From: Bacteroidia bacterium
GTDB taxonomy: Bacteria > Bacteroidota > Bacteroidia > Cytophagales > Cyclobacteriaceae
NCBI GenBank assembly: GCA_043785125.1
Contig: JAYVXP010000212.1
Span: 923 to 64,922 of the forward strand
Length of the DNA: 64,000 nucleotides
Direction of reading: 5' to 3'
Shown here: positions 7,751 to 60,625 of the stretch, in pieces
Layout of the letters: every line of letters begins with the position of its first letter
Position numbering within the stretch: position 1 is the stretch's first letter
Notes under the pieces: generated by a model
Database searches by the model: none
Seen by the model: the letters and a program-made list of their open reading frames with translations, nothing else
Told to the model about the DNA's origin: nothing
Translations under genes and position numbers: made by a program

Positions 7751-7854
7751 TATTTTGCCATTTCATGCAAGTTAGTCAAAAACAAAACTATTGGGAGGGT
7801 GTTAATGATGGGATTTGATTGGGGTATGTGGTCTGCAAATAATTGGCTAATTAA

Positions 7855-13451: not shown

Positions 13452-13493
13452 TGGCCGTAGCAAAGTGTATGTGCTGATTCTTACCTTTGCAGC

Positions 13494-16713: not shown

Positions 16714-16792
16714 GCGTGTTGATTTTTGATGCGAAGTAAAGTTATGAAACTTACGGTTCATGTGAGCGGCAATAGCTATCTTTGTCGTTCCT

Positions 16793-23983: not shown

Positions 23984-24217
23984 AGATTCCAACACACCAC
24001 CTAAGAGAGCAAAGATTGACAGGCTTTAAAAAATTATCCGCAAAAGTAGAGATTTTAAGAACAAAAAGCACAATTTGCCCGCGGAAAGGTAAATCAAAGC
24101 CGAAATCGATTTTTTACAGGTATTGTTTGGCGATTAAACGTTAGAGTGAGTCATGTCATTGCCCGGTTTATGAACATAATTTCCGGTTTATTCCGGTGCA
24201 GGTTGTTGGGGAAGTTG

Positions 24218-25471
24218 ATGAATAATCTACTATTGATAGGCGTGCGGGCCATTATTGCCGTCATATTGTTTTTTTCCGTGACTTCGGTTGGTGCTCAAAC
24301 CATTACCGGCTCTGTCTATTCCTATTTCGGTATCGGACCATTGCAAGGAAGGTCCTCAGCCTACAACCGGGCATTGAGTTATACAGGGGTTGGTGTACGG
24401 GACGATTACAATATTAATGGAATGAATCCGGCTTCTTACAATGCCATAGTTAAACCGTTTACCACACTTTTTGAGATCGGTGGAAATTATGAATCGACTT
24501 TTCACGAAACCAATGTTGCGTCTTCCACATCTAAAACGGGAGGACTCAATGGTATTAATTTTATGGTTAGGCCTTCTGCGAAGTTAGGTTTGATGTTGGG
24601 CGCTACACCCCTAAGCAACATTTCATACAGGGCCTCCGCTACCACACAGTTTCCCGCTATCAGCGCCCCGGTTCCAGTTCTATACGAAGGATCAGGAGGT
24701 ATCAATCAATTTTATTTTGGGGCTGCTTATGAACTGTTCAAAAACTTTTCTTTCGGGGGAAATTTATCGTACTATTTAGGTACTATCAAAAAGATAGAGA
24801 CCGTTTCTCCCACGGCAGTGTCACCTCAACTGATTGTCAACAACCGAACGACCGCCCATAACTCAGGTTTTGATTTGGGAGCGCAATATTCCATCAATAT
24901 AAAGAAGACCAAGATTATTCTGGGCGCTACCTGGGATCCTGGAGCTTTCCTGAGCGGTTACCAGGCAAGTTCCGTGGTTAATCTGAATCTGGATACGCTT
25001 TCCAAGACGCTTCCCATTTACACGAGCTATCGCCTGCCACCAACGTATGGAGCGGGTTTTTCTTTGAAAACCAAGCGGTCAACCATTGCTGCGGATTTTC
25101 ACTTCATCGATTGGAAAAAAGCAGTGATGAATGATATCAGTAGCGTATCGTATCAAAATAGTATGAAGTATTCCTTCGGTTATGAGTTCCGAGGGGACCC
25201 CTACGCAATGAAGTACCTCAATTTAATTTCTTTCCGTGGCGGATTTTTTATTCAGGATTATCCGGTTGCTGTACCGACTTCATTTAAGACCTGGGGATAT
25301 ACATTCGGAATAAGTTTGCCGCTTGAAAACTACCGGTCATCTGTTAATGTCAATTATTCCTTCACCCAGGTGGGCACTACACAAGGCGGCCAGGTCAGAG
25401 AGCAATCGGGCAAGCTGGTGATCGATTTTATCATTCGTGATATTTGGGGCATCAAACGGAAATTTGACTAG
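24218..25471 (+). CDS. Putative outer-membrane beta-barrel protein
   Basis: Start set to the ATG at 24218, which gives a signal peptide (..FFSVTSVGAQ). Alternating aromatic/small residues and a C-terminal ..RKFD. No family recognised. Confidence 0.55.
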   Translation: MNNLLLIGVRAIIAVILFFSVTSVGAQTITGSVYSYFGIGPLQGRSSAYNRALSYTGVGVRDDYNINGMNPASYNAIVKPFTTLFEIGGNYESTFHETNVASSTSKTGGLNGINFMVRPSAKLGLMLGATPLSNISYRASATTQFPAISAPVPVLYEGSGGINQFYFGAAYELFKNFSFGGNLSYYLGTIKKIETVSPTAVSPQLIVNNRTTAHNSGFDLGAQYSINIKKTKIILGATWDPGAFLSGYQASSVVNLNLDTLSKTLPIYTSYRLPPTYGAGFSLKTKRSTIAADFHFIDWKKAVMNDISSVSYQNSMKYSFGYEFRGDPYAMKYLNLISFRGGFFIQDYPVAVPTSFKTWGYTFGISLPLENYRSSVNVNYSFTQVGTTQGGQVREQSGKLVIDFIIRDIWGIKRKFD

Positions 25472-36943: not shown

Positions 36944-37359
36944 CAAAACTTAATTTTATGGGGGGGATGATCACAGTTGACTCTATGCTTCAAATTTAAC
37001 GAATAAGTATGGTGAGGATTGCCTCTTTTTTGTGGTTTGTTTTATGGGTCGAAGCAATAACATTGAGTTATCCCTTGTTTGAAGTGTGCTTGTTGTTGAA
37101 TTTTGTTGAATCAATTGATCCGTTATGTTGCCCGCGTCACAAATTGATTTATGGCATCTCTAAAAACCCTGCCTCTTATGGCTTCAACCCGTCACCCTTC
37201 TCCAGAAGTGATACAAGGAGTTTTTCTGACACAGTACAACATCAACGTTACTTCTTGCAGAAGGTACAGTGCCACGGTCAGGGAGTACATTTAAAATAGT
37301 TGTACTTCTTACAATTGGGATAGACTAAATAAGGTAATTTTGTAAAAAATAACAACGGT

Positions 37360-40337: not shown

Positions 40338-40616
40338 AGACCAAGCAATATATCCGAAAGCAAAGATACCGATTTACTTTTTAGAATGAACCATAGCATG
40401 TATTCCTGAAGACTCCGGATAGGCGTGAATGGTATTCAAATTTTAAGCAGTGGCACAGTTCTAGGAACAAGTCTTCTTTCTTGCTGGAGTCGAGTTGAAG
40501 CTTAGAGTAAATTACCTTGAGGCCTTTCTGGGAGAAAAACAAGCCAGCGGTGCTGTATAAGTTTACGGACTTACTTATTATTGGGTTCCCATGAATTCCC
40601 GCTCCCAAAGCATGAC

Positions 40617-42512: not shown

Positions 42513-42908
42513 GTGTTTTGATCATAGATAATCGGTGGACTGCGAGCCGTGGCGGGTTCTTGAAGCCACGATTTTCTCTATGTGTCTGAACGAAATTAAG
42601 AAACTAAAGCCACAAATCAACATCTTTTCGTTATCAGCGGACTCGGGACTTTCGGAGCGCGCGTTGGGGCATTTTTGAAACTCACTCTTCCTACTTACGA
42701 TACTCTGGTATAAAAAATGCCTGCCTGCCGGACAGGGAATGTTTCCAAAAGCCCCTTTGGCGGTCCGGCATGTAGTGGAGTATTTGGGGAGGTACACCCA
42801 CAAGATAGCCATCTCCGGCCACCGCATTCTGAAGGTAAAATATGGATTTTTTTTATTGTGGCTAGTGATGAGCTCGTTAGCTACTATTGGTTACGAAAGG
42901 TTTTATTT

Positions 42909-45746
42909 CTAACGGCTCCTCACTAACTGTAATGTTTCTTTAAGCGATAATTTCCTCCCGGACTCTATTGCTTCATCCAATTCTACTTTTGATAATTTGG
43001 TTTTAGCGTCATCCAGGTAAATTTTGCCTTGAAATCCTTCTCCGTAATTGTTTACGATGCCTTCTTGCTCTGTAAAAAGTTGAGCCGCTGTTGCAATTTC
43101 AATGGCTTTGGCGGGACGACGCTCAACGGATTCTACGCCGGCAATTCCGAAAAGAGCTATTCCAATTCCGCGTACACTCCCAACATCTTCATAAGCACGG
43201 ATGGAATCCAGAAAATGTTTACGAGCTTCTTCCGCATTTTCAGCTTTTAAAAATACCCAGGCCATTTCTTCTAATATGCGGGCTTCTTCCGCACGATCCC
43301 CGATGGTGACAAATGAACTTAATGCAGCTTGGTATAAATCAATGGATTCCTGAGAATTTCCTCGGATAGAAGAAAGCAAAGCCAGTCCACCTTGCGAAAG
43401 CCCTCCACCCTCTCGGTCCGGAATTTTATTTTGAATAGCCAGCGCCAGGTCAAAAGATTTTTTTGCATCATCCAACTCTCCCTTTACCGTATGCATGATA
43501 CCAGCAGCACTGTGGGCAAAACCTATTTCAAAATCGGTTCCTGTCTCGAGACTCAGTTGAAGATATTCCTTCACACAGTTACTTGCTTCCGCTATCTTTC
43601 CTAATCCTAAATTGGCGATGAACATACTTAACATGGAAAATGCCATTGTTGATCTTTCGTTCAGCATCACGGCAATTTCATAAGCGCTTTGGTGTTCTTT
43701 TATACTTTGTTTACCCTTACCCAGGGTAGATGATGCAAGCCCCACTGTGTTTAAACACAAACATTTGCCTATGCTGAACGCCGGACAATTTGGTAAAGTA
43801 AGGAATGAATTGGAGTAATGTCTGGCTATAATATGCTTACATCGGATGTGCCAGAAAAAATATAATTGTCCGCAAATCGTTAAGCCAATTTCTACTGCTT
43901 CTTCATTACCACCCTTCCCTTCACTAAATAGAAAATCCAAAACGGATTGTAAGTTACTCTCTTCTAAAATTCCGTGATGCATTTCTTCGAGCTGATCTTT
44001 GCTTTCCAGACCTTGACGAATCTGGTTGGCGATCTTCAAAAAGTGTCGCGCCTGGCGGAGTTTTACTGTGTTGGTCTCCGAAATTGTGTCTAACCGTTCA
44101 AGGGCATATTCTTTAATGGTTTCAAGCATCATGAATCGGTCCGAGGATCCAACATGTTGTACCAATCCTTTATCAACCAGTGATTCTAGTTCGTCAAAAG
44201 CCAACGATGAATTTTCTTCATAACATGTTTCTTCAATGGCTTCCAAGGTGCATCCTCCAGAGAATACGGCCATTCTACGAAATAATTTTTTTTCATAATC
44301 AGTTAACAGGGAGTGGCTCCAATCAATGGTTGCTCGTAAGGTTTGATGTCGCTCGGGAAGATCCTTCGCACCGCTCGTGAGCACATCTAAAGCATGTTCT
44401 AAGCGTTGTAACAACTGTTTAGCGGACATCATTCGAATTCGCGCAGCAGCGAGTTCCAGGGCAAGGGGCAGGCCATCCAAGCGTTGACATATTTGAATAA
44501 CCTCGGCCGCATTTTCGCTGGTTAGCTGAAATGCATTGCTTACTTTTTTAGCCCGATCAACAAACAATGAAACAGATGGAAATTCCAGGAGAACGTCAAT
44601 AGATTTTAAATCCTTATTTGAGGGCAGTAAAAGTGGCTTCAGGGAGTACTCATATTCCGCACTTATCTTTAAAGGCGTGCGACTTGTCGTCAGTATTTTT
44701 AGATTTGGGCAAGTTGAAATTAACTCAGCAATCTGAGGAGCTACGGCAATGACTTGCTCTAGATTATCTAACACCAATAAAGCTTTTCGATCGCCAATAA
44801 CTGATGTGATTCCTTTCATTAAAGTTCTTCCTTCGGCCTCCTTAATTCCCAACGTATTCGCAAGTGTTGGGATCATATCTTCAGCCGCAGTAAGTGCGGC
44901 CATGGAAGCGAAGACAACATTTCCCGAAAACTTATCCTTCAGGCGATGAGAAAGTTCTAGTGCCAATCTTGTTTTGCCCATTCCACCCGAACCAACAATA
45001 GTGATAACCCTGTTCTCCTTTAGTAGTTCAGTGAGTTCAGTGAGTTCTTTGTCCCTACCAAATAAAGTTGTCGCGGGAATAGGAATGATGTTATTCATTC
45101 CTAGAAAACGTTCTGCTTTATTTTGAACAGGGTCACGAGAGGAGCTACCGACTTTTAAGGCATCCAAAATTTCTTTAATTGCATTGGCAACCTTATTGAT
45201 TTGATCTCTGTACGAAGTTTTGTTAAAATTCTCGTTCTGTTTATCACTTCTAATCAGCGGCCGATTAATCCCCGTTGACTTAAAAGTAAAATCAATCGCT
45301 CTCAGAATACCTCCCAGTTCTTTTTCAAGAGTACTCACATCGTTATTGTCTAACGCATGAATGCGAACTGGTAATATTCTGCTTGCTACATTGCCATTGG
45401 CAACTCTCACCTTTAATCCAAATTGATCTGTGGAGGCTAAATCCTGAAAAGGCAGGAGCTCATTTTTCCAGGCAAAACTGTTTGGATCACAATAGGTTTG
45501 GGAGACGATGGGGATTAGAATTAGCGACTTTATTTTTTCTCTTAAACTCAGATCAACATCGTGATGATCACTTAATCCATCGTGTAGGTTCGTATCAAAA
45601 TAAATAGAGATGTCTTCTTTGAAGGTAGCTTCGAGTTCTGTACGTAAAGCACTGACAAACTCCGTTACCCAATGATCGCCCTTGTTATCCTTATGGCGAT
45701 AAGAGATGAAGATATCATATCCAAAGTCAGGTATTATTGAAGGCAT
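42909..45746 (-). CDS. TIR-NB-ARC-TPR STAND NTPase (TIR-domain effector fused to an AP-ATPase and TPR sensor)
   Basis: 945 aa, ATG start. TIR: DIFISYRHKD and NSFAWKNEL. NB-ARC: VGSGGMGKT, LLVLDNLE, ILTTSR, DGLPLALE. Winged helix LFRRMAVFSGGCTLEAIE. About 380-aa helical-repeat C-terminus. Confidence 0.85.
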   Translation of the reverse strand: MPSIIPDFGYDIFISYRHKDNKGDHWVTEFVSALRTELEATFKEDISIYFDTNLHDGLSDHHDVDLSLREKIKSLILIPIVSQTYCDPNSFAWKNELLPFQDLASTDQFGLKVRVANGNVASRILPVRIHALDNNDVSTLEKELGGILRAIDFTFKSTGINRPLIRSDKQNENFNKTSYRDQINKVANAIKEILDALKVGSSSRDPVQNKAERFLGMNNIIPIPATTLFGRDKELTELTELLKENRVITIVGSGGMGKTRLALELSHRLKDKFSGNVVFASMAALTAAEDMIPTLANTLGIKEAEGRTLMKGITSVIGDRKALLVLDNLEQVIAVAPQIAELISTCPNLKILTTSRTPLKISAEYEYSLKPLLLPSNKDLKSIDVLLEFPSVSLFVDRAKKVSNAFQLTSENAAEVIQICQRLDGLPLALELAAARIRMMSAKQLLQRLEHALDVLTSGAKDLPERHQTLRATIDWSHSLLTDYEKKLFRRMAVFSGGCTLEAIEETCYEENSSLAFDELESLVDKGLVQHVGSSDRFMMLETIKEYALERLDTISETNTVKLRQARHFLKIANQIRQGLESKDQLEEMHHGILEESNLQSVLDFLFSEGKGGNEEAVEIGLTICGQLYFFWHIRCKHIIARHYSNSFLTLPNCPAFSIGKCLCLNTVGLASSTLGKGKQSIKEHQSAYEIAVMLNERSTMAFSMLSMFIANLGLGKIAEASNCVKEYLQLSLETGTDFEIGFAHSAAGIMHTVKGELDDAKKSFDLALAIQNKIPDREGGGLSQGGLALLSSIRGNSQESIDLYQAALSSFVTIGDRAEEARILEEMAWVFLKAENAEEARKHFLDSIRAYEDVGSVRGIGIALFGIAGVESVERRPAKAIEIATAAQLFTEQEGIVNNYGEGFQGKIYLDDAKTKLSKVELDEAIESGRKLSLKETLQLVRSR
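42912..44069 (-). other. TPR-like helical repeat sensor region (aa ~560-945)
   Basis: Repeated A/L/Y-rich helix pairs (e.g. AEEARKHFLDSIRAYEDVG). C-terminal cap ..ESGRKLSLKETLQLV resembles the end of AfsR/LuxR-type STAND-TPR proteins. Confidence 0.65.
44217..45074 (-). other. NB-ARC / AP-ATPase module plus winged helix (aa ~225-510)
   Basis: Walker A codons at 44970-44993 (GSGGMGKT, Lys258), Walker B Asp327, TTSR, GLPLA (aa 425-429). Confidence 0.8.
45297..45722 (-). other. TIR domain of the STAND protein (aa ~9-150)
   Basis: Beta-A motif FISY, LIPIVSQTY, and W-K-N-E-L with the putative catalytic Glu96 (codon 45459-45461). Confidence 0.75.
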
Positions 45747-45759
45747 TTGGTAAAAATAG

Positions 45760-45767
45760 CAAATTTA
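45760..45767 (-). promoter_or_regulatory. Candidate Bacteroidota -7 promoter box for the TIR-STAND gene
   Basis: The reverse complement reads TAAATTTG, an exact fit to TAnnTTTG, 14-21 nt upstream of the ATG at 45746. Confidence 0.4.
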
Positions 45768-55710: not shown

Positions 55711-58269
55711 ATGGCAAATATGGAAGCAAAATTTTCTAACCGCGTGAAGGAAGTTATTTCTTTAAGTCGGGAAGAAGCCCTACGGTTAGGCCATGACTAC
55801 ATCGGCACAGAGCACCTCCTGCTCGGGATGATCCGGGAGGGCGAAGGTGTGGCCGTTGCCGTCTTGAAGAAACTCGGGGTACCGCTGGACGACCTTCGTG
55901 GTGAAATTGAAAAAGTTTCCAAAGGAACGGCAACACATGAAATCAAGAATCTGGCGAATATTCCATTGACCCGTGCTTCCGAGAAAGTACTTAAAATTAC
56001 GTATCTCGAAGCCAAAATATTTAAAGCGCAACTCATCGGCACAGAACACCTGTTGCTTTCTATTTTACGTGACCCCGACAATCTCGCAACTCAAATTCTA
56101 AACAAATTCGATGTGGCTTACGATGTGGTAAAAGAAATGCTCGAGTACCAGGACAAGACGCCCATGGCCTCGCAAGACACCGACGACCCGGATGAGGATT
56201 CGTCAAAAATGTTTGGTGGTGGTTCGGGGTCCGGACCTTCCGGCAAGGAGAAAAAAGGAAGTGCCGAAAAATCAAGGACACCTGTGCTGGATAATTTTGG
56301 ACGTGACCTGACCAAACTGGCGGAAGACAACAAACTGGACCCGATCGTTGGCCGCGAGAAAGAGATTGAACGCGTAGCTCAGATTCTGAGCCGCAGGAAG
56401 AAAAATAATCCAATTCTCATTGGAGAACCCGGTGTGGGAAAAACCGCTATTGCTGAAGGGCTGGCGCTCCGCATTATTCAGAAAAAAGTTTCTCGCGTGC
56501 TGTTTGGCAAGCGTGTGGTTACGCTGGATCTCGCTTCTTTGGTGGCCGGTACCAAATACCGCGGCCAGTTTGAAGAGCGCATGAAAGCAGTGATGAATGA
56601 GTTGGAGAAATCTCCGGATGTCATCCTTTTCATTGATGAATTGCATACCATCGTTGGCGCTGGCGGAGCTTCGGGCTCACTGGATGCTTCCAATATGTTT
56701 AAACCGGCACTGGCGCGCGGAGAGATTCAATGTATTGGAGCCACCACCCTGGATGAATACCGCCAGTACATTGAAAAAGACGGAGCCTTGGCCCGCCGGT
56801 TTCAAATGGTCTTGGTGGATTCGACATCGGTGGACGAAACCATTCAGATTCTGGACAACATCAAAGAAAAATACGAGGACCATCATCATGTTACATACAC
56901 CAAGGAAGCCATTGATGCCTGTGTAAAACTTTCTGACCGCTACATCAGCGATCGCTTTTTACCCGACAAGGCCATTGACGTATTGGATGAAGCCGGTGCA
57001 CGTGTGCACATCAATAACATTCACGTGCCCGATGACATCGTGAAATATGAAGACGCGATAGAAGAAGTAAAGAAAGAAAAGAACCGTGTCGTCAAGAGTC
57101 AGAAATATGAAGAGGCGGCCCAACTGCGGGATAAAGAAAAGAAATTGATTGAACAGCTTGATCTTGCGAAAGCGCGCTGGGAAGAAAAGACCCGCACTGA
57201 AAAATATACAGTGACGGAAGACAATGTGGCGGACGTGATTGGTATGATGACGGGTATTCCGGCCAACCGCATCGCGCAAAAAGAAAGCAATAAATTGCTG
57301 GGTATGGCCGACCAGCTCAGTGGCCGCGTGATCGGGCAAGTGGAGGCGATTGGCAAGTTGACCAAAGCCATTCAACGCACGCGCGTGGGATTGAAAGACC
57401 CCCGCAAACCAATAGGTTCATTTATTTTTCTGGGTCCTACCGGCGTTGGCAAAACCGAATTGGCGAAAGTATTGGCATCCTACCTTTTTGATAAGGACGA
57501 CGCCCTGGTGCGCATTGATATGAGCGAGTACATGGAAAAGTTTTCTGTATCGCGACTGGTGGGTGCACCTCCTGGATACGTAGGCTACGAAGAAGGAGGC
57601 CAGCTTACCGAAAAAGTAAGAAGAAAGCCGTACAGCGTCGTGTTGCTTGATGAAATTGAAAAAGCCCATCCGGATGTTTTCAATATCTTATTACAAGTGC
57701 TGGATGATGGGATTCTGACAGATGGTTTAGGACGGAGGGTAGACTTCCGCAACACGATCATCATCATGACCTCCAACATAGGAGTTCGTGATCTGAAGGA
57801 TTTTGGCAGCGGCATCGGTTTTGCAAGCAAGGCCAAACAACAGAACGATGAAGAGAATATGAAGAGTACGATTCAAAGTGCCCTCAAGCGTGCATTCTCT
57901 CCTGAATTCCTCAACAGGCTGGATGATGTGATTGTGTTCAATTCGCTTAAACGTGAAGACATTCATAAGATCATCGACTTGTCACTAGGCAAATTGTTTA
58001 CACGAATCGTGGCATTGGGTTACACAGTTGAGCTGAGTGATAAGGCGAAGGACTTCCTCGCAGAGAAAGGCTACGATCAGCAGTTTGGCGCCCGGCCGCT
58101 CAATCGTGCGATACAGAAATACCTGGAAGACCCGGTCGCGGAAGAAATTCTCAAAGGAGACGTCGAACAAGGCGGAACCATAACGGCCGACTACCTGGGT
58201 GAAGGTGATGTGCTGACGATCAAAACCAAAAAGGCAAAGGCATCTTCGAAAGAGAAAAAAGCCGAATAG
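55711..58269 (+). CDS. clpC: ATP-dependent Clp protease ATP-binding subunit (ClpC-type class I AAA+)
   Basis: Two Clp_N repeats ([16 protein letters not shown]). Walker A GEPGVGKT and [11 protein letters not shown]-like linker [13 protein letters not shown]. ClpB_D2-small domain. Confidence 0.93.
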
Positions 58270-58300
58270 GATTGGTGGATTTCAGGATTGTGGGATTAAT
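58267..58300 (+). repeat. GGATT periodic array between the convergent clpC and WG-repeat genes
   Basis: TAGGATTGGTGGATTTCAGGATTGTGGGATTAAT, four units at 8-nt spacing, overlapping both stop codons. Confidence 0.7.
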
Positions 58301-60422
58301 CAATGGGCAGGCTTTTCCACATTGATTTCTTCCAGGCGAGGTATTGATTTCTTTCTGGATCATAAACCAGTTTGTCATACATCATCGGCACAGTGCTCAG
58401 TCCCTGAAGTGTCAGCAATCCGAATTTTCCTTCACGCCCTGCAATAAGATAACCATTTTGCAAATTTTGCAGGTGATCAAACCGGGGTTCAATTAATACA
58501 TTTCCATTTTGATCGGCCAAACCGTATAGTCGGGCAGTCATAATTAGAAATGTCTGATCCGGCAAACGGCTGATCGAGTCATAACGTAACGCCAAAATTA
58601 CATTTCCCTCCTTATTGATTAAACCGGCCTTTCCGGTCCGATGTACGATGGCGATGGTGTTGACAAAAGGTTGAACCGATTCATAATTGGGGTTGATGAT
58701 GATTTGATCATGGATGGAAACATAGCCCCACTTTCCGATCAATTTTATGGGAGCAAGCCCTTCGTGAAATTCTCCGATATCGTCATACCGGTTTGCAACA
58801 CGCAATCGTCCACGGGAATCCACAAACCCATACTTTCCGTCTTTCTGGATGCCGCGCATTCCCTCACTCGCTGCAAAAGTTCTCTGAACGGGCAGGACGC
58901 TGGCAGTTTCTTCTTTGGGAATCATTTCCGACCCTTGATAGCTTATCTGTTTCTCAGCGCCGGTGGTAACCGTTTCTTTCAAATAGTCGCGTTCAGCTAT
59001 GATTGGATTTGAAGTAAAGTAGATTATTTCTCCCTTGAAGTTTTTTAGAAAGGTATTGCTGTCCCCTTTTTCAAGGAAAAGATTTTCATTTACCAGGGCA
59101 ACCCGTTGAGGCTGCGGTGGCAGAAGCCATTTTTCTTCTTTGTCAATAATACCAAACTGGCTCCGGAATTTTACGGCTACCTGGTCTGCCTTAAATTCCA
59201 GCAAGGAATCGAAAACGCAATTGATGAATTCTTCACCATACCGGTTCACGGCACCCCAATAGCCTCTTTTTTTGACAGGAAAAAATTTTCCGTTGTACGG
59301 ACCCAGGAATTCGTAATACGAACGTGTCTTTTGAATTCCGAATGTGTCGTACAATGACCAGGACATCTTGTGGTTAATAGATTGGGCAGCCCGAATGAAA
59401 TTTCTATCGAGGGCCAACGAATCGAATTCGATAGGAAGAATATTAGAATTGTTCTTTTTAATAATTCCGTAATGTTTTTGGGTGCCTACCACCCGGTTTC
59501 CATGGTCTGCATGGCCAACAAAATCGTAGCCAACGGGCAAGATGATTTTTAATTCGTTATCTGCTAACCCCGATTTGCCCGCCAGGGTTATGAGGTAAAC
59601 GCCCGGTTCCGATTTTTCCAAATGATCAGCCCGGACTTTTTGAATTTCATGGTTCTCGCCATCCAGAATTTTCCATTCATCAAAGTCACGTGCGGCGATT
59701 GCCCCCTCTTCATCAACTTTCAATTCACGATAACCGGGCTTGATTTTGATTTCACCTTCCCGGCCGATAAGACCTTGAGCAAAGTCCTGATAAATGATGG
59801 CCATGCCATGGTGAAAAGCGGAAATGCTGTCAATTTCAAAATTGGTGAGCTGGTTTCCTTGTTCTGAAAAAAGCGCGGTTTTCAACGCGCGGTTTTCAAC
59901 AGCATAGCGAAGTGTTCCAATCGGATAAATCTGACGGTAACGCAGCGGAATAATTCCCTTGTCGTACAGATCAATCAATCCATATTCAAACAAGGGTCCG
60001 TTCTTGATAAAGACAACAGCGCGTAGTCCGGAGATATTTATTCCATCATAGCGAAACGGCACTGTCATCTTGCCGGTCAGGTCAAGACAACCATACTTTA
60101 TCGTAAAAGGATTTGTTTTGCGGGAAGCAATAATCCGGTCGCCGCCCTGATAGGTGAGGCTTTCAAAATCGGCTTGCGTGATAAATTGTTTCTGAAGGTT
60201 GATAATTCCCCAGTGATCTTTCAATTTATAACCCGTCACCTGTCCAATCACTGAAAAATTTCCATCCGACCAGCCGAGGGCTTCAAAGGCGGCAGGAATC
60301 AAAACTTTCCCTTTTTCGTCCTTGAGTCCAACCTTCCCTTTTTCCTCAAAACGCACAAAGGGGTCAGCCATGGATTGAACAACAGCACAAAGTACAAACA
60401 GGACATGGACCCAAAAACGCAT
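58296..60422 (-). CDS. WG-repeat (KWG) protein, secreted
   Basis: 708 aa with a signal peptide. About 15+ repeats of the type G.(K/H)(W/Y)G(L/I/V)I(D/N)..G..(V/I)IP..Y. Confidence 0.8.
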   Translation of the reverse strand: MRFWVHVLFVLCAVVQSMADPFVRFEEKGKVGLKDEKGKVLIPAAFEALGWSDGNFSVIGQVTGYKLKDHWGIINLQKQFITQADFESLTYQGGDRIIASRKTNPFTIKYGCLDLTGKMTVPFRYDGINISGLRAVVFIKNGPLFEYGLIDLYDKGIIPLRYRQIYPIGTLRYAVENRALKTALFSEQGNQLTNFEIDSISAFHHGMAIIYQDFAQGLIGREGEIKIKPGYRELKVDEEGAIAARDFDEWKILDGENHEIQKVRADHLEKSEPGVYLITLAGKSGLADNELKIILPVGYDFVGHADHGNRVVGTQKHYGIIKKNNSNILPIEFDSLALDRNFIRAAQSINHKMSWSLYDTFGIQKTRSYYEFLGPYNGKFFPVKKRGYWGAVNRYGEEFINCVFDSLLEFKADQVAVKFRSQFGIIDKEEKWLLPPQPQRVALVNENLFLEKGDSNTFLKNFKGEIIYFTSNPIIAERDYLKETVTTGAEKQISYQGSEMIPKEETASVLPVQRTFAASEGMRGIQKDGKYGFVDSRGRLRVANRYDDIGEFHEGLAPIKLIGKWGYVSIHDQIIINPNYESVQPFVNTIAIVHRTGKAGLINKEGNVILALRYDSISRLPDQTFLIMTARLYGLADQNGNVLIEPRFDHLQNLQNGYLIAGREGKFGLLTLQGLSTVPMMYDKLVYDPERNQYLAWKKSMWKSLPID

Positions 60423-60625
60423 ACAACAAAGGTAAAGTCATTTCCGGGAAATGGCCATAGTCAATTCGTCCAAATGCAGATAACGCCAGGCTTAAGGCTG
60501 GGTTATGGAATCGGGAATTTTTATGAACTTTAATCCGTTTAAGGACTGATCGCCGAATGAAGCCGGTTTGGCAAGTAAAAATGCCTAAATTGGATGTTCA
60601 GACTTGTCCATTTTTTTATTGATTT

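Follow-up and report, generated by a model that had tools for sequence, protein, structure and literature searches.

Background

Bacterial proteins that join a TIR domain, an AP-ATPase, and tetratricopeptide (TPR) repeats in one polypeptide have been described, and one of their reported settings is downstream of FxSxx peptide systems (Kaur et al. 2020, PMC7159879). The corresponding plant architecture is named TNP (formerly XTNX), with bacterial and fungal TIR-NB-TPR proteins noted alongside it (Johanndrees et al. 2023, PMC9806590), and cell death by the maize protein ZmTNP-IIa requires both the catalytic TIR glutamate and the P-loop (PMC9806590). Divergent TIR-like domains on NACHT-WD40/TPR proteins were shown to be NAD+-cleaving enzymes (NADases; 10.64898/2026.09.21.753143), while a 2025 systematic survey of bacterial TIR signalling left out Avs TIRs and stand-alone TIR genes by design (10.64898/2025.12.03.692087). 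Here, we analysed computationally a gene of this general layout, which encodes a 945-amino-acid STAND NTPase and lies in a stretch of 64,000 nucleotides (the window) from contig JAYVXP010000212.1 of a Bacteroidia bacterium in the family Cyclobacteriaceae (assembly GCA_043785125.1).

To our knowledge, nearly all current work on bacterial TIR domains treats them as anti-phage effectors or as signal generators. The original prediction for this gene, made from the sequence and its open reading frames alone, cast it as a stand-alone TIR-NB-ARC-TPR protein and candidate single-gene immune or abortive-infection sensor. The novelty that it implied for the architecture was overstated, as bacterial TIR-AP-ATPase-TPR proteins had already been described (PMC7159879, PMC9806590). 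In the literature we found no description of the Bacteroidota TIR subfamily reported below, of its membrane receptors, or of its exchange with a cyclase; coverage was incomplete and an earlier description is possible, and with that limit the subfamily and the cyclase swap look undescribed.

Results

A TIR-like domain and a class III cyclase alternate on two sensor scaffolds

The gene exists where the original prediction placed it, as a 945-amino-acid open reading frame with an ATG start, and an identical copy of its protein is present in a public protein collection (P0001). Its features are as follows.

42909 to 45746, minus strand: complete open reading frame, 945 amino acids, ATG start, TIR-like/NB-ARC/winged-helix/TPR STAND NTPase; stop codon at 42909 to 42911
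45252 to 45722, minus strand: TIR-like domain, residues ~9-165 (AlphaFold2 model, Foldseek, sub-threshold TIR_2, hhalign)
45459 to 45461, minus strand: codon of Glu96, candidate catalytic glutamate, second turn of helix C, three residues after Trp93
45087 to 45239, minus strand: long helix (residues ~180-199) and low-confidence linker (200-220) from TIR to NTPase (models)
44307 to 45074, minus strand: NB-ARC (AP-ATPase) nucleotide-binding and helical domains, residues ~225-480
44970 to 44996, minus strand: Walker A motif VGSGGMGKT (Lys258)
44763 to 44780, minus strand: Walker B motif LLVLDN (Asp327), followed by the invariant Glu330
44454 to 44477, minus strand: GLPL motif DGLPLALE
44079 to 44306, minus strand: winged-helix domain, residues ~481-556 (weak Pfam WHD_ROQ1 match at 483-546; helix/strand pattern in the model)
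42912 to 44075, minus strand: TPR-like alpha-solenoid, residues ~558-945, presumed sensor

Residues ~200-945 are 47-50% identical to thousands of proteins in which a class III cyclase domain (PF00211) precedes NB-ARC and TPR, relatives that JGI names 'predicted ATPase/class 3 adenylate cyclase'. The original prediction stated that the N-terminal slot of this clade usually holds a DNA-binding or cyclase domain, and a cyclase is indeed what thousands of ~48%-identical proteins carry there, as PF00211. The N-terminal 200 residues of the window protein gave no cyclase match, and it therefore lacks the PF00211 domain by which the class III cyclase-STAND family is recognised. From sequence comparison, the STAND gene is a rare output-domain swap within this very large family. 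Its full-length orthologues number only ~16, comprising 13 at 65-77% identity and three at ~46%, and those that could be placed belong to Cytophagales or Cyclobacteriaceae metagenome-assembled genomes, several of them from glacier-fed-stream-type sample sets. Among the 13 closer orthologues, mean identity is 74% in the TIR-like domain, 73% in NB-ARC, 65% in the winged helix, and 64% in the TPR region, and the linker is the least conserved segment (51% identity among orthologues).

The first 200 residues, taken separately, match >1,000 proteins at 60-70% identity. Searching 1.84 billion cluster representatives (clusters at the 50% identity level) with a profile of this domain yielded 1,488 clusters at E <= 1e-3, of which 559 reach E <= 1e-30, and in nearly all of them the TIR-like domain begins at residue 1 of a protein of 680-830 amino acids; the STAND type makes up only two of the best 150 clusters. 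These proteins are membrane receptors of two layouts, in which the TIR-like domain and one transmembrane helix are followed either by a TolB_N/FlgO-like domain and TPR repeats or by a PD40 beta-propeller. For 40 receptors, each taken from a separate cluster at the 50% identity level, pairwise identity averages 69% in the TIR-like domain, 26% in the linker and transmembrane helix, and 22% in the periplasmic part. Genomes often hold several copies of such receptors, frequently in tandem, and the window holds a single copy of the TIR-like domain. Source annotations put no TIR name on any member, calling them 'hypothetical', 'TolB-like', or 'TPR repeat protein'. The TIR effector is a highly conserved Bacteroidota module, mostly borne by membrane receptors, and not a fast-evolving defence TIR.

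The membrane receptors provide a second scaffold. The periplasmic TolB_N and TPR part of one receptor (L013:8001-10163) served as query, and its closest relatives are membrane proteins of Bacteroidota that carry a class III cyclase at the N-terminus (P0391-P0509) and match the query from end to end at 50-57% identity; these cyclase twins come from Flavihumibacter, Maribacter, Chitinophagaceae, and Saprospiraceae. Of the best 120 matches to this sensor, the TIR motif is present in 23; among the other 97, most carry PF00211. Receptors of both kinds share one topology, i.e., a cytoplasmic output domain of ~190 amino acids, one transmembrane helix, and then 'KSIAVLPF...'. Judged by these alignments, the TIR-like domain and the class III cyclase are interchangeable on two unrelated sensor scaffolds.

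Several further observations concern the receptor loci. Tandem arrays of two to four TIR paralogues were seen at L016:2710-9393, L021:3536-13409, L023:7404-12188, L031:5599-12514, and L002:880-9406. The last of these loci contains a STAND orthologue, which has a PD40 fragment directly upstream and is followed, 3.5 kb downstream, by a 719-amino-acid membrane TIR paralogue. An Amidohydro_1 protein of ~420-480 amino acids lies within a few kb of membrane-type TIR receptors (L021:1021-2280, L022:2213-3658, L031:13900-15348) and recurs in L023, L026, and L027; none lies beside the STAND gene. L026 and L027, both on the Chryseolinea contig JASGJX010000026.1, hold one membrane-type TIR receptor each (794 and 444 amino acids), of which the first ~430 residues are identical and the C-terminal ends differ; by contig coordinates, the two matches are one stretch read on opposite strands.

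The N-terminal domain is a divergent TIR domain

Compared with Pfam at full length, the protein returned no TIR model, and relatives of its first 200 residues have no precomputed Pfam domain on record. The domain scored 18.2-18.5 bits with TIR_2, short of the cut-off of 28; residues 1-219 scanned alone gave 18.2 bits (E = 0.004). TIR_2 reached E < 0.01 in 12 of 21 family members (best 7e-6), always under the cut-off. The original prediction had expected TIR_2, NB-ARC, and TPR matches in Pfam; the latter two pass, and the first stays sub-threshold.

Structure prediction gave a clearer view. An AlphaFold2 model of the domain, built from an alignment of 42 relatives of the first 200 residues, has a mean predicted local distance difference test (pLDDT) value of 87.6 and a predicted template modelling score of 0.87. 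Its first half comprises strand A (10-15), helix A (26-42), a short strand B, an extended and poorly predicted BB loop (50-65), helix B (66-72), and strand C (74-81), and its second half starts with helix C (91-106) and continues with an extra beta-hairpin (112-122; insertion 108-122) that precedes strand D, followed by helix D (134-144) and strand E and closed by a long helix at the C-terminal end (179-202). Foldseek comparison with the PDB placed nearly exclusively TIR domains in the top 10 (RUN1, SNC1, RPP1, TLR10, SARM1, BtpA, ThsB1), with RUN1 (7rx1) the best match (E = 3e-5, probability 1.00, TM-score normalised to the target 0.59). The confident model and its TIR matches agree with the fold that the original prediction had named.

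Profile-profile alignment with hhalign matched the family to L6/RUN1/RPV1 at 82% probability (pairwise E = 1.1e-5) over 117 columns spanning residues 6-149; the L6 and SARM1 TIR sequences used were confirmed against the PDB, and those of RUN1 and RPV1 came from the same PDB search. The other sequence searches returned less. A trimmed family profile searched against the PDB with HMMER found the L6 TIR as its best but weak match (E = 0.28), the TIR part as a single sequence found only chance-level non-TIR matches there (best E = 0.064), and neither the sub-fragment 66-167 nor the untrimmed family profile found any match in the PDB. Against SARM1 alone, hhalign aligned only the DxFISYR strand, and the strand-A motif DIFISYR is nearly identical to DVFISYR of SARM1. 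PADLOC reported a weak and partial ThsB match (E = 0.0046, residues 9-83). Because the AlphaFold2 model, Foldseek, and the profile-profile alignment to plant TIRs all support the call despite the sub-threshold Pfam score, we conclude that the N-terminal domain is a genuine but divergent TIR domain missed by current Pfam thresholds.

A candidate catalytic glutamate

Glu96 is invariant in 42 of 42 family members, as is Trp93 in every alignment made, and the two residues share one face of helix C within its first two turns. The hhalign alignment sets Trp93 on the tryptophan, and Glu96 on the catalytic glutamate, of the plant 'WCLxEL' motif (L6/RUN1); the catalytic glutamate of RUN1 is marked by PDB 7s2z, which reads 'WCLDAL' where the wild type has 'WCLDEL'. 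Glu96, singled out by the original prediction, is therefore a good candidate for the catalytic residue, invariant and, at moderate posterior support, aligned to the plant TIR catalytic glutamate, and this role is predicted.

Intact ATPase motifs and a presumed TPR sensor

All motifs that the original prediction listed lie at the residues given there: DIFISYRHKD at 11-20, NSFAWKNEL at 89-97, VGSGGMGKT at 251-259, LLVLDN at 323-328 (with D327), ILTTSR at 351-356, DGLPLALE at 424-431, LFRRMAVF... of the winged helix at 488-505, and the C-terminal cap GRKLSLKETLQLV at 930-942. One coordinate needs correction, as the nine Walker A codons, reported as 44970-44993, really span 44970-44996. Pfam supports both the switch and the presumed sensor, with NB-ARC matching residues 239-477 at 39.7 bits (cut-off 23.5) and TPR_12 scoring 47.5 bits (cut-off 30.1). 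In an alignment of 39 TIR-type and cyclase-type homologues, the invariant positions include G252, G254, G255, G257, K258, and T259 of Walker A, L326, D327, N328, and E330 of Walker B and its flank, T354 and R356 of the TSR motif, and G425, P427, L428, and A429 of the GLPL motif; the predicted ATPase is therefore likely functional.

The TPR region is similar to the NCBIfam AfsR and HaaT TPR models and appears in the model as paired helices with pLDDT ~90. The full-length model (pLDDT 76.9) has as its best Foldseek match an archaeal STAND-TPR protein (6mfv, E = 2e-14), followed by plant NLR resistosomes, Apaf-1, CED-4, and Roq1. Among solved structures, sequence search found only two Streptomyces AfsR chains (8k60, E = 1e-6), which accords with the AfsR-type NB-ARC-TPR clade to which the protein had been assigned. 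Together, these results bear out a TIR/NB-ARC/TPR sensor-switch-effector architecture.

Genomic context and known defence systems give no support for an immune role

In the window we found no defence gene and no gene for an integrase or transposase. The genes around the STAND gene encode a beta-lactamase-fold hydrolase, a CLC channel, a DoxX protein, a CN-hydrolase, YjbR, and a GH28 enzyme, and the wider 64 kb encode TonB-dependent receptors with CarboxypepD_reg domains, DUF5686 and DUF4270 proteins, a Clp ATPase, and metabolic enzymes; the window looks like an ordinary Bacteroidota chromosome. Four orthologue loci were compared, and there as in the window the neighbours belong to metabolism or housekeeping. 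They hold carbon monoxide/xanthine-dehydrogenase clusters, methyltransferases, peptidases, and a fatty-acid desaturase, and differ from the window and from one another; no defence or mobile genes were found around the orthologues in these four loci; with so few loci, this is an absence of evidence rather than a statistical test. The differing neighbours agree with a stand-alone gene that has no partner open reading frame. All-against-all comparison of the neighbours of 18 loci, aimed at a shared partner or a receptor for the signal, likewise linked no gene to the STAND gene; what recurred were paralogous TIR receptors and, near some membrane-type paralogues, the amidohydrolase. The distribution, for which the original prediction had proposed a survey, is sparse (~16 orthologues in the protein collection), and defence-island neighbourhoods were absent from the loci examined. 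The STAND gene is neither a syntenic core gene, its neighbours varying among orthologues, nor visibly defence-associated.

Searches of mobile elements pointed the same way. In 72,556 plasmids and 50,697 phages, tblastn found no match covering the TIR part, only ~30%-identical NB-ARC-TPR bodies annotated as PknK kinases or as LuxR or SARP/BTAD regulators, and the TIR profile found no relative in 2.9 million viral contigs. PADLOC, which the original prediction had proposed as a check, matched no system and returned only a generic TPR match, weak P-loop matches, and the ThsB match described above. Context, models, mobile-element collections, and relatives thus lend no support to the immune or abortive-infection sensor.

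Several described systems and regulator classes were considered and rejected as identities for this protein. The NCBIfam Avs4 model of the Avs (AVAST) systems scored 11.9 bits against a cut-off of 1500, on the P-loop only, and no Avs was among the PADLOC matches. For bNACHT, Pfam NACHT scored 17.3 bits against a cut-off of 26.7, and NB-ARC was the better and significant match. The ThsB similarity to Thoeris is weak and partial, and no neighbouring gene is effector-like. The TIR-AP-ATPase-TPR protein of the FxSxx-COOH system (NCBIfam NF040586) scored 61.8 bits against a cut-off of 300, and no peptide-processing or vWA-MoxR genes are neighbours. Finally, an AfsR/SARP or MalT/LuxR transcription regulator was rejected as Pfam and NCBIfam found no BTAD/SARP or LuxR helix-turn-helix domain.

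Flanking sequence

Two short elements flank the gene.

45760 to 45767, minus strand: TAAATTTG, which fits the Bacteroidota -7 promoter consensus TAnnTTTG (consensus match only)
42720 to 42736, minus strand: terminator-like hairpin followed by a T-run, ~170 nucleotides 3' of the stop codon (pattern scan only)

The promoter-like box of the original prediction is present, 13 nucleotides 5' of the ATG, as is the 146-bp upstream spacer. TAnnTTTG occurs 61 times in the window against 54.5 +/- 7.5 expected, i.e., not above chance. Such boxes lie 5-35 nucleotides 5' of many predicted starts, e.g., at 451-458, 13482-13489, 16777-16784, and 37335-37342 on the plus strand, with others near starts at 7783-7790, 36991-36998, 40361-40368, and 60427-60434 on the minus strand; the boxes near starts are consistent with possible Bacteroidota-type promoters with very short leaders. 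The claimed 396-bp downstream spacer is reasonable overall, although it holds a 101-amino-acid open reading frame (42522-42827, minus strand) between the STAND gene and the DoxX gene. This open reading frame has no Pfam match and contains the terminator-like hairpin (42736-42720); for these reasons it is probably not a gene, and the spacer can therefore stand. As a partner gene it was rejected, showing no similarity to a similarly placed small open reading frame beside one orthologue. A comparison of the whole window with Rfam gave no RNA family, and the G+C content of the STAND gene is 41.6% against 44.0% for the window.

Elsewhere in the window, a 441-amino-acid open reading frame (24146-25471, plus strand) matches no Pfam family at E <= 1e-8, and a 708-amino-acid protein of WG_beta_rep repeats (153.5 bits; 58296-60422, minus strand) adjoins the gene of a Clp-type double-AAA ATPase (55711-58269).

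Discussion

The gene itself is confirmed and its architecture was rightly interpreted, and the immune interpretation is possible but unsupported. We lean, tentatively, towards a ligand-gated STAND protein in which the TIR domains, once clustered, would process NAD+ to produce a signal, the role that the cyclase has in its paralogues. The main reason to read the TIR as a signalling output is that it is interchangeable with a nucleotide cyclase on two unrelated scaffolds. Beside what is observed in the architecture, the intact ATPase motifs, the TIR fold with its conserved glutamate, the swap, and the non-defence context, we infer ligand gating, oligomerisation, NADase chemistry, and a signalling rather than killing consequence. 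The C-terminal TPR solenoid would bind a ligand and thereby free NB-ARC, which could then replace ADP by ATP and form oligomers; this would bring the N-terminal TIR domains together into NAD+-processing active sites centred on Glu96. Their product might be a NAD+-derived nucleotide signal of the ADP-ribose or cyclic ADP-ribose type, the counterpart of the cyclic nucleoside monophosphate (cNMP) made by the class III cyclase paralogues. The STAND protein would then be one of the few cytosolic proteins in a large family of Bacteroidota receptors with one conserved TIR output, and not a dedicated anti-phage suicide gene.

Several points weigh against this signalling reading. The characterised bacterial TIR or TIR-STAND systems in the literature that we surveyed are all immune. 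Clustering of TIR domains by a STAND module is how Avs-type and plant TNL receptors kill cells, single-gene defence genes also occur outside defence islands, and cyclase domains can be immune too (Pycsar). A conserved effector with diversified sensors and tandem paralogue arrays is also the signature of an immune receptor family. Further, the neighbours of the STAND gene and of its paralogues in the 18 loci included no candidate that could receive a signal made by the TIR, and the assignment of Glu96 has soft spots: in the hhalign alignment its posterior is 0.3-0.5 only and a one-residue deletion is needed between tryptophan and glutamate, and in a MAFFT alignment with SARM1 the tryptophans align and Glu96 falls one residue before E642.

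The signalling reading can be widened to the phylum, a possibility that we hold more doubtful. One conserved TIR subfamily, in a system not dedicated to immunity, would serve as the cytoplasmic output of many receptors and would make a NAD+-derived second messenger that plays the role of cAMP or cGMP in the cyclase-bearing twins. Hundreds of these receptors would be TLR-like membrane proteins that sense through periplasmic TPR repeats or beta-propellers, and a few would be cytosolic NB-ARC-TPR STAND proteins. If so, TIR-derived nucleotides would be ordinary bacterial second messengers. A TIR domain that replaces a cyclase on two scaffolds, in ordinary chromosomal contexts and throughout a phylum, offers a test of NAD+-derived nucleotides as routine second messengers.

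Among the rival explanations, single-gene anti-phage abortive infection survives best, and we regard it as unlikely. Here, the TPR region would sense a phage protein, NB-ARC would oligomerise, and the clustered TIRs would deplete NAD+ until the cell dies or arrests. Avs proteins and plant TNLs have this very sensor-switch-effector architecture, and the TIR fold with its conserved candidate catalytic glutamate, a stand-alone gene with its own promoter-like box and contexts that differ between genomes, and a sparse distribution (~16 orthologues in the protein collection) all fit such a gene, as does the maize TIR-NBARC-TPR protein whose cell death needs the catalytic glutamate and the P-loop (PMC9806590). 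However, the window and the orthologue loci examined lack flanking defence or mobile genes, PADLOC matched no system and the Avs4 and NACHT scores fell short of their cut-offs, and the nearest relatives of the scaffold are cyclase, kinase, LuxR, and SARP regulators. Nor does conservation favour it, since the TIR domain is ~69% identical across hundreds of periplasm-facing receptors, an odd place to sense phage proteins, and all domains including the TPR are evenly conserved among orthologues (64-74%). Were it a defence gene after all, the single-gene STAND defences would gain a Bacteroidota TIR-NB-ARC-TPR type, and the thousands of members of the cyclase-STAND family would deserve immunity testing.

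A non-catalytic TIR, acting in assembly or as an adaptor, seems to us unlikelier again. On activation, homotypic TIR-TIR contacts, with itself or with the many membrane TIR receptors in the cell, would recruit or regulate a common partner, as in TLR/MyD88. Identity of ~69% across deep paralogues exceeds the usual demands of catalysis and fits a shared interaction surface; several paralogues per genome, often in tandem, the sub-threshold TIR_2 score, and a tryptophan-to-glutamate spacing one residue off that of canonical NADase TIRs also agree with it. Yet Glu96, Trp93, and FISYR are invariant, and their equivalents line the NAD+ pocket in SARM1 and plant TIRs; exchange with an enzyme, the cyclase, on two scaffolds suggests an enzymatic output; and no stand-alone adaptor-like TIR partner was identified. 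A catalytic TIR with a substrate other than NAD+, which would release bases from nucleotides or nucleosides (DNPH1, SLOG) or process nucleic acids to 2',3'-cNMP as reported for some plant TIRs, is improbable: in its favour, this divergent subfamily has insertions of its own (the extended BB loop and the hairpin) and a changed W-E spacing, lower Foldseek ranks include flavodoxin-like nucleotide-binding folds, and divergent TIR-like STAND effectors with unusual pockets are known (TeTIR, 10.64898/2026.09.21.753143), but the best sequence and structure matches are all NAD+-cleaving TIRs (RUN1, SARM1, RPP1, AbTIR-type) and nothing points to one specific alternative.

Whether the output proves to be a signal or cell death, the outcome would inform how NLR-like architectures arise by output-domain swapping. 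As an architecture the single gene is unremarkable; the family pattern merits a targeted experiment.

Comparison with known systems

Like Avs and bNACHT proteins, the window protein combines an N-terminal effector, a STAND NTPase, and a C-terminal repeat sensor in one polypeptide, and some Avs proteins carry TIR effectors; unlike them, it has neither a match to their models nor a defence-island context. With Streptomyces AfsR and MalT/PknK-type regulators it shares the NB-ARC-TPR body, including a TPR region that resembles NCBIfam AfsR, whereas it lacks their SARP/BTAD, LuxR, or kinase domain and has a TIR as output. It differs from the FxSxx-associated TIR-AP-ATPase-TPR proteins in that its TIR subfamily is Bacteroidota-specific and no peptide-system genes are adjacent. 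Plant TNP proteins have TIR, NB-ARC, and TPR in one polypeptide in the same order, a likeness that concerns architecture only.

At the level of the TIR domain, the strand A motif, strands C and D, and, at moderate posterior support, the W...E motif of helix C align with those of plant TNL TIRs (RUN1, L6, RPP1, SNC1) and SARM1, while identity is ~15-18%, the window TIR has an extended BB loop, an extra hairpin, and a long C-terminal helix, and the tryptophan and glutamate are three residues apart in it versus four in plant TNL and SARM1 TIRs. The Bacteroidota receptors in which TIR and transmembrane helix precede TolB_N/TPR or PD40 are much closer, with an N-terminal TIR-like domain 55-70% identical to that of the window protein; they are membrane-anchored, with periplasmic sensors and no NTPase switch, whereas the window protein is predicted to be cytosolic and NB-ARC-gated. 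For the rest of the chain, the counterparts are the class III cyclase-STAND proteins of Bacteroidota, Actinomycetota, and others, which have PF00211 at the N-terminus where the window protein has its TIR-like domain and which number in the thousands, as opposed to the rare TIR type with ~16 sequences. The two types have the same length and domain order, their NB-ARC, winged helix, TPR, and C-terminal cap are 47-50% identical over ~78% of the protein, and the ATPase motifs are invariant in both.

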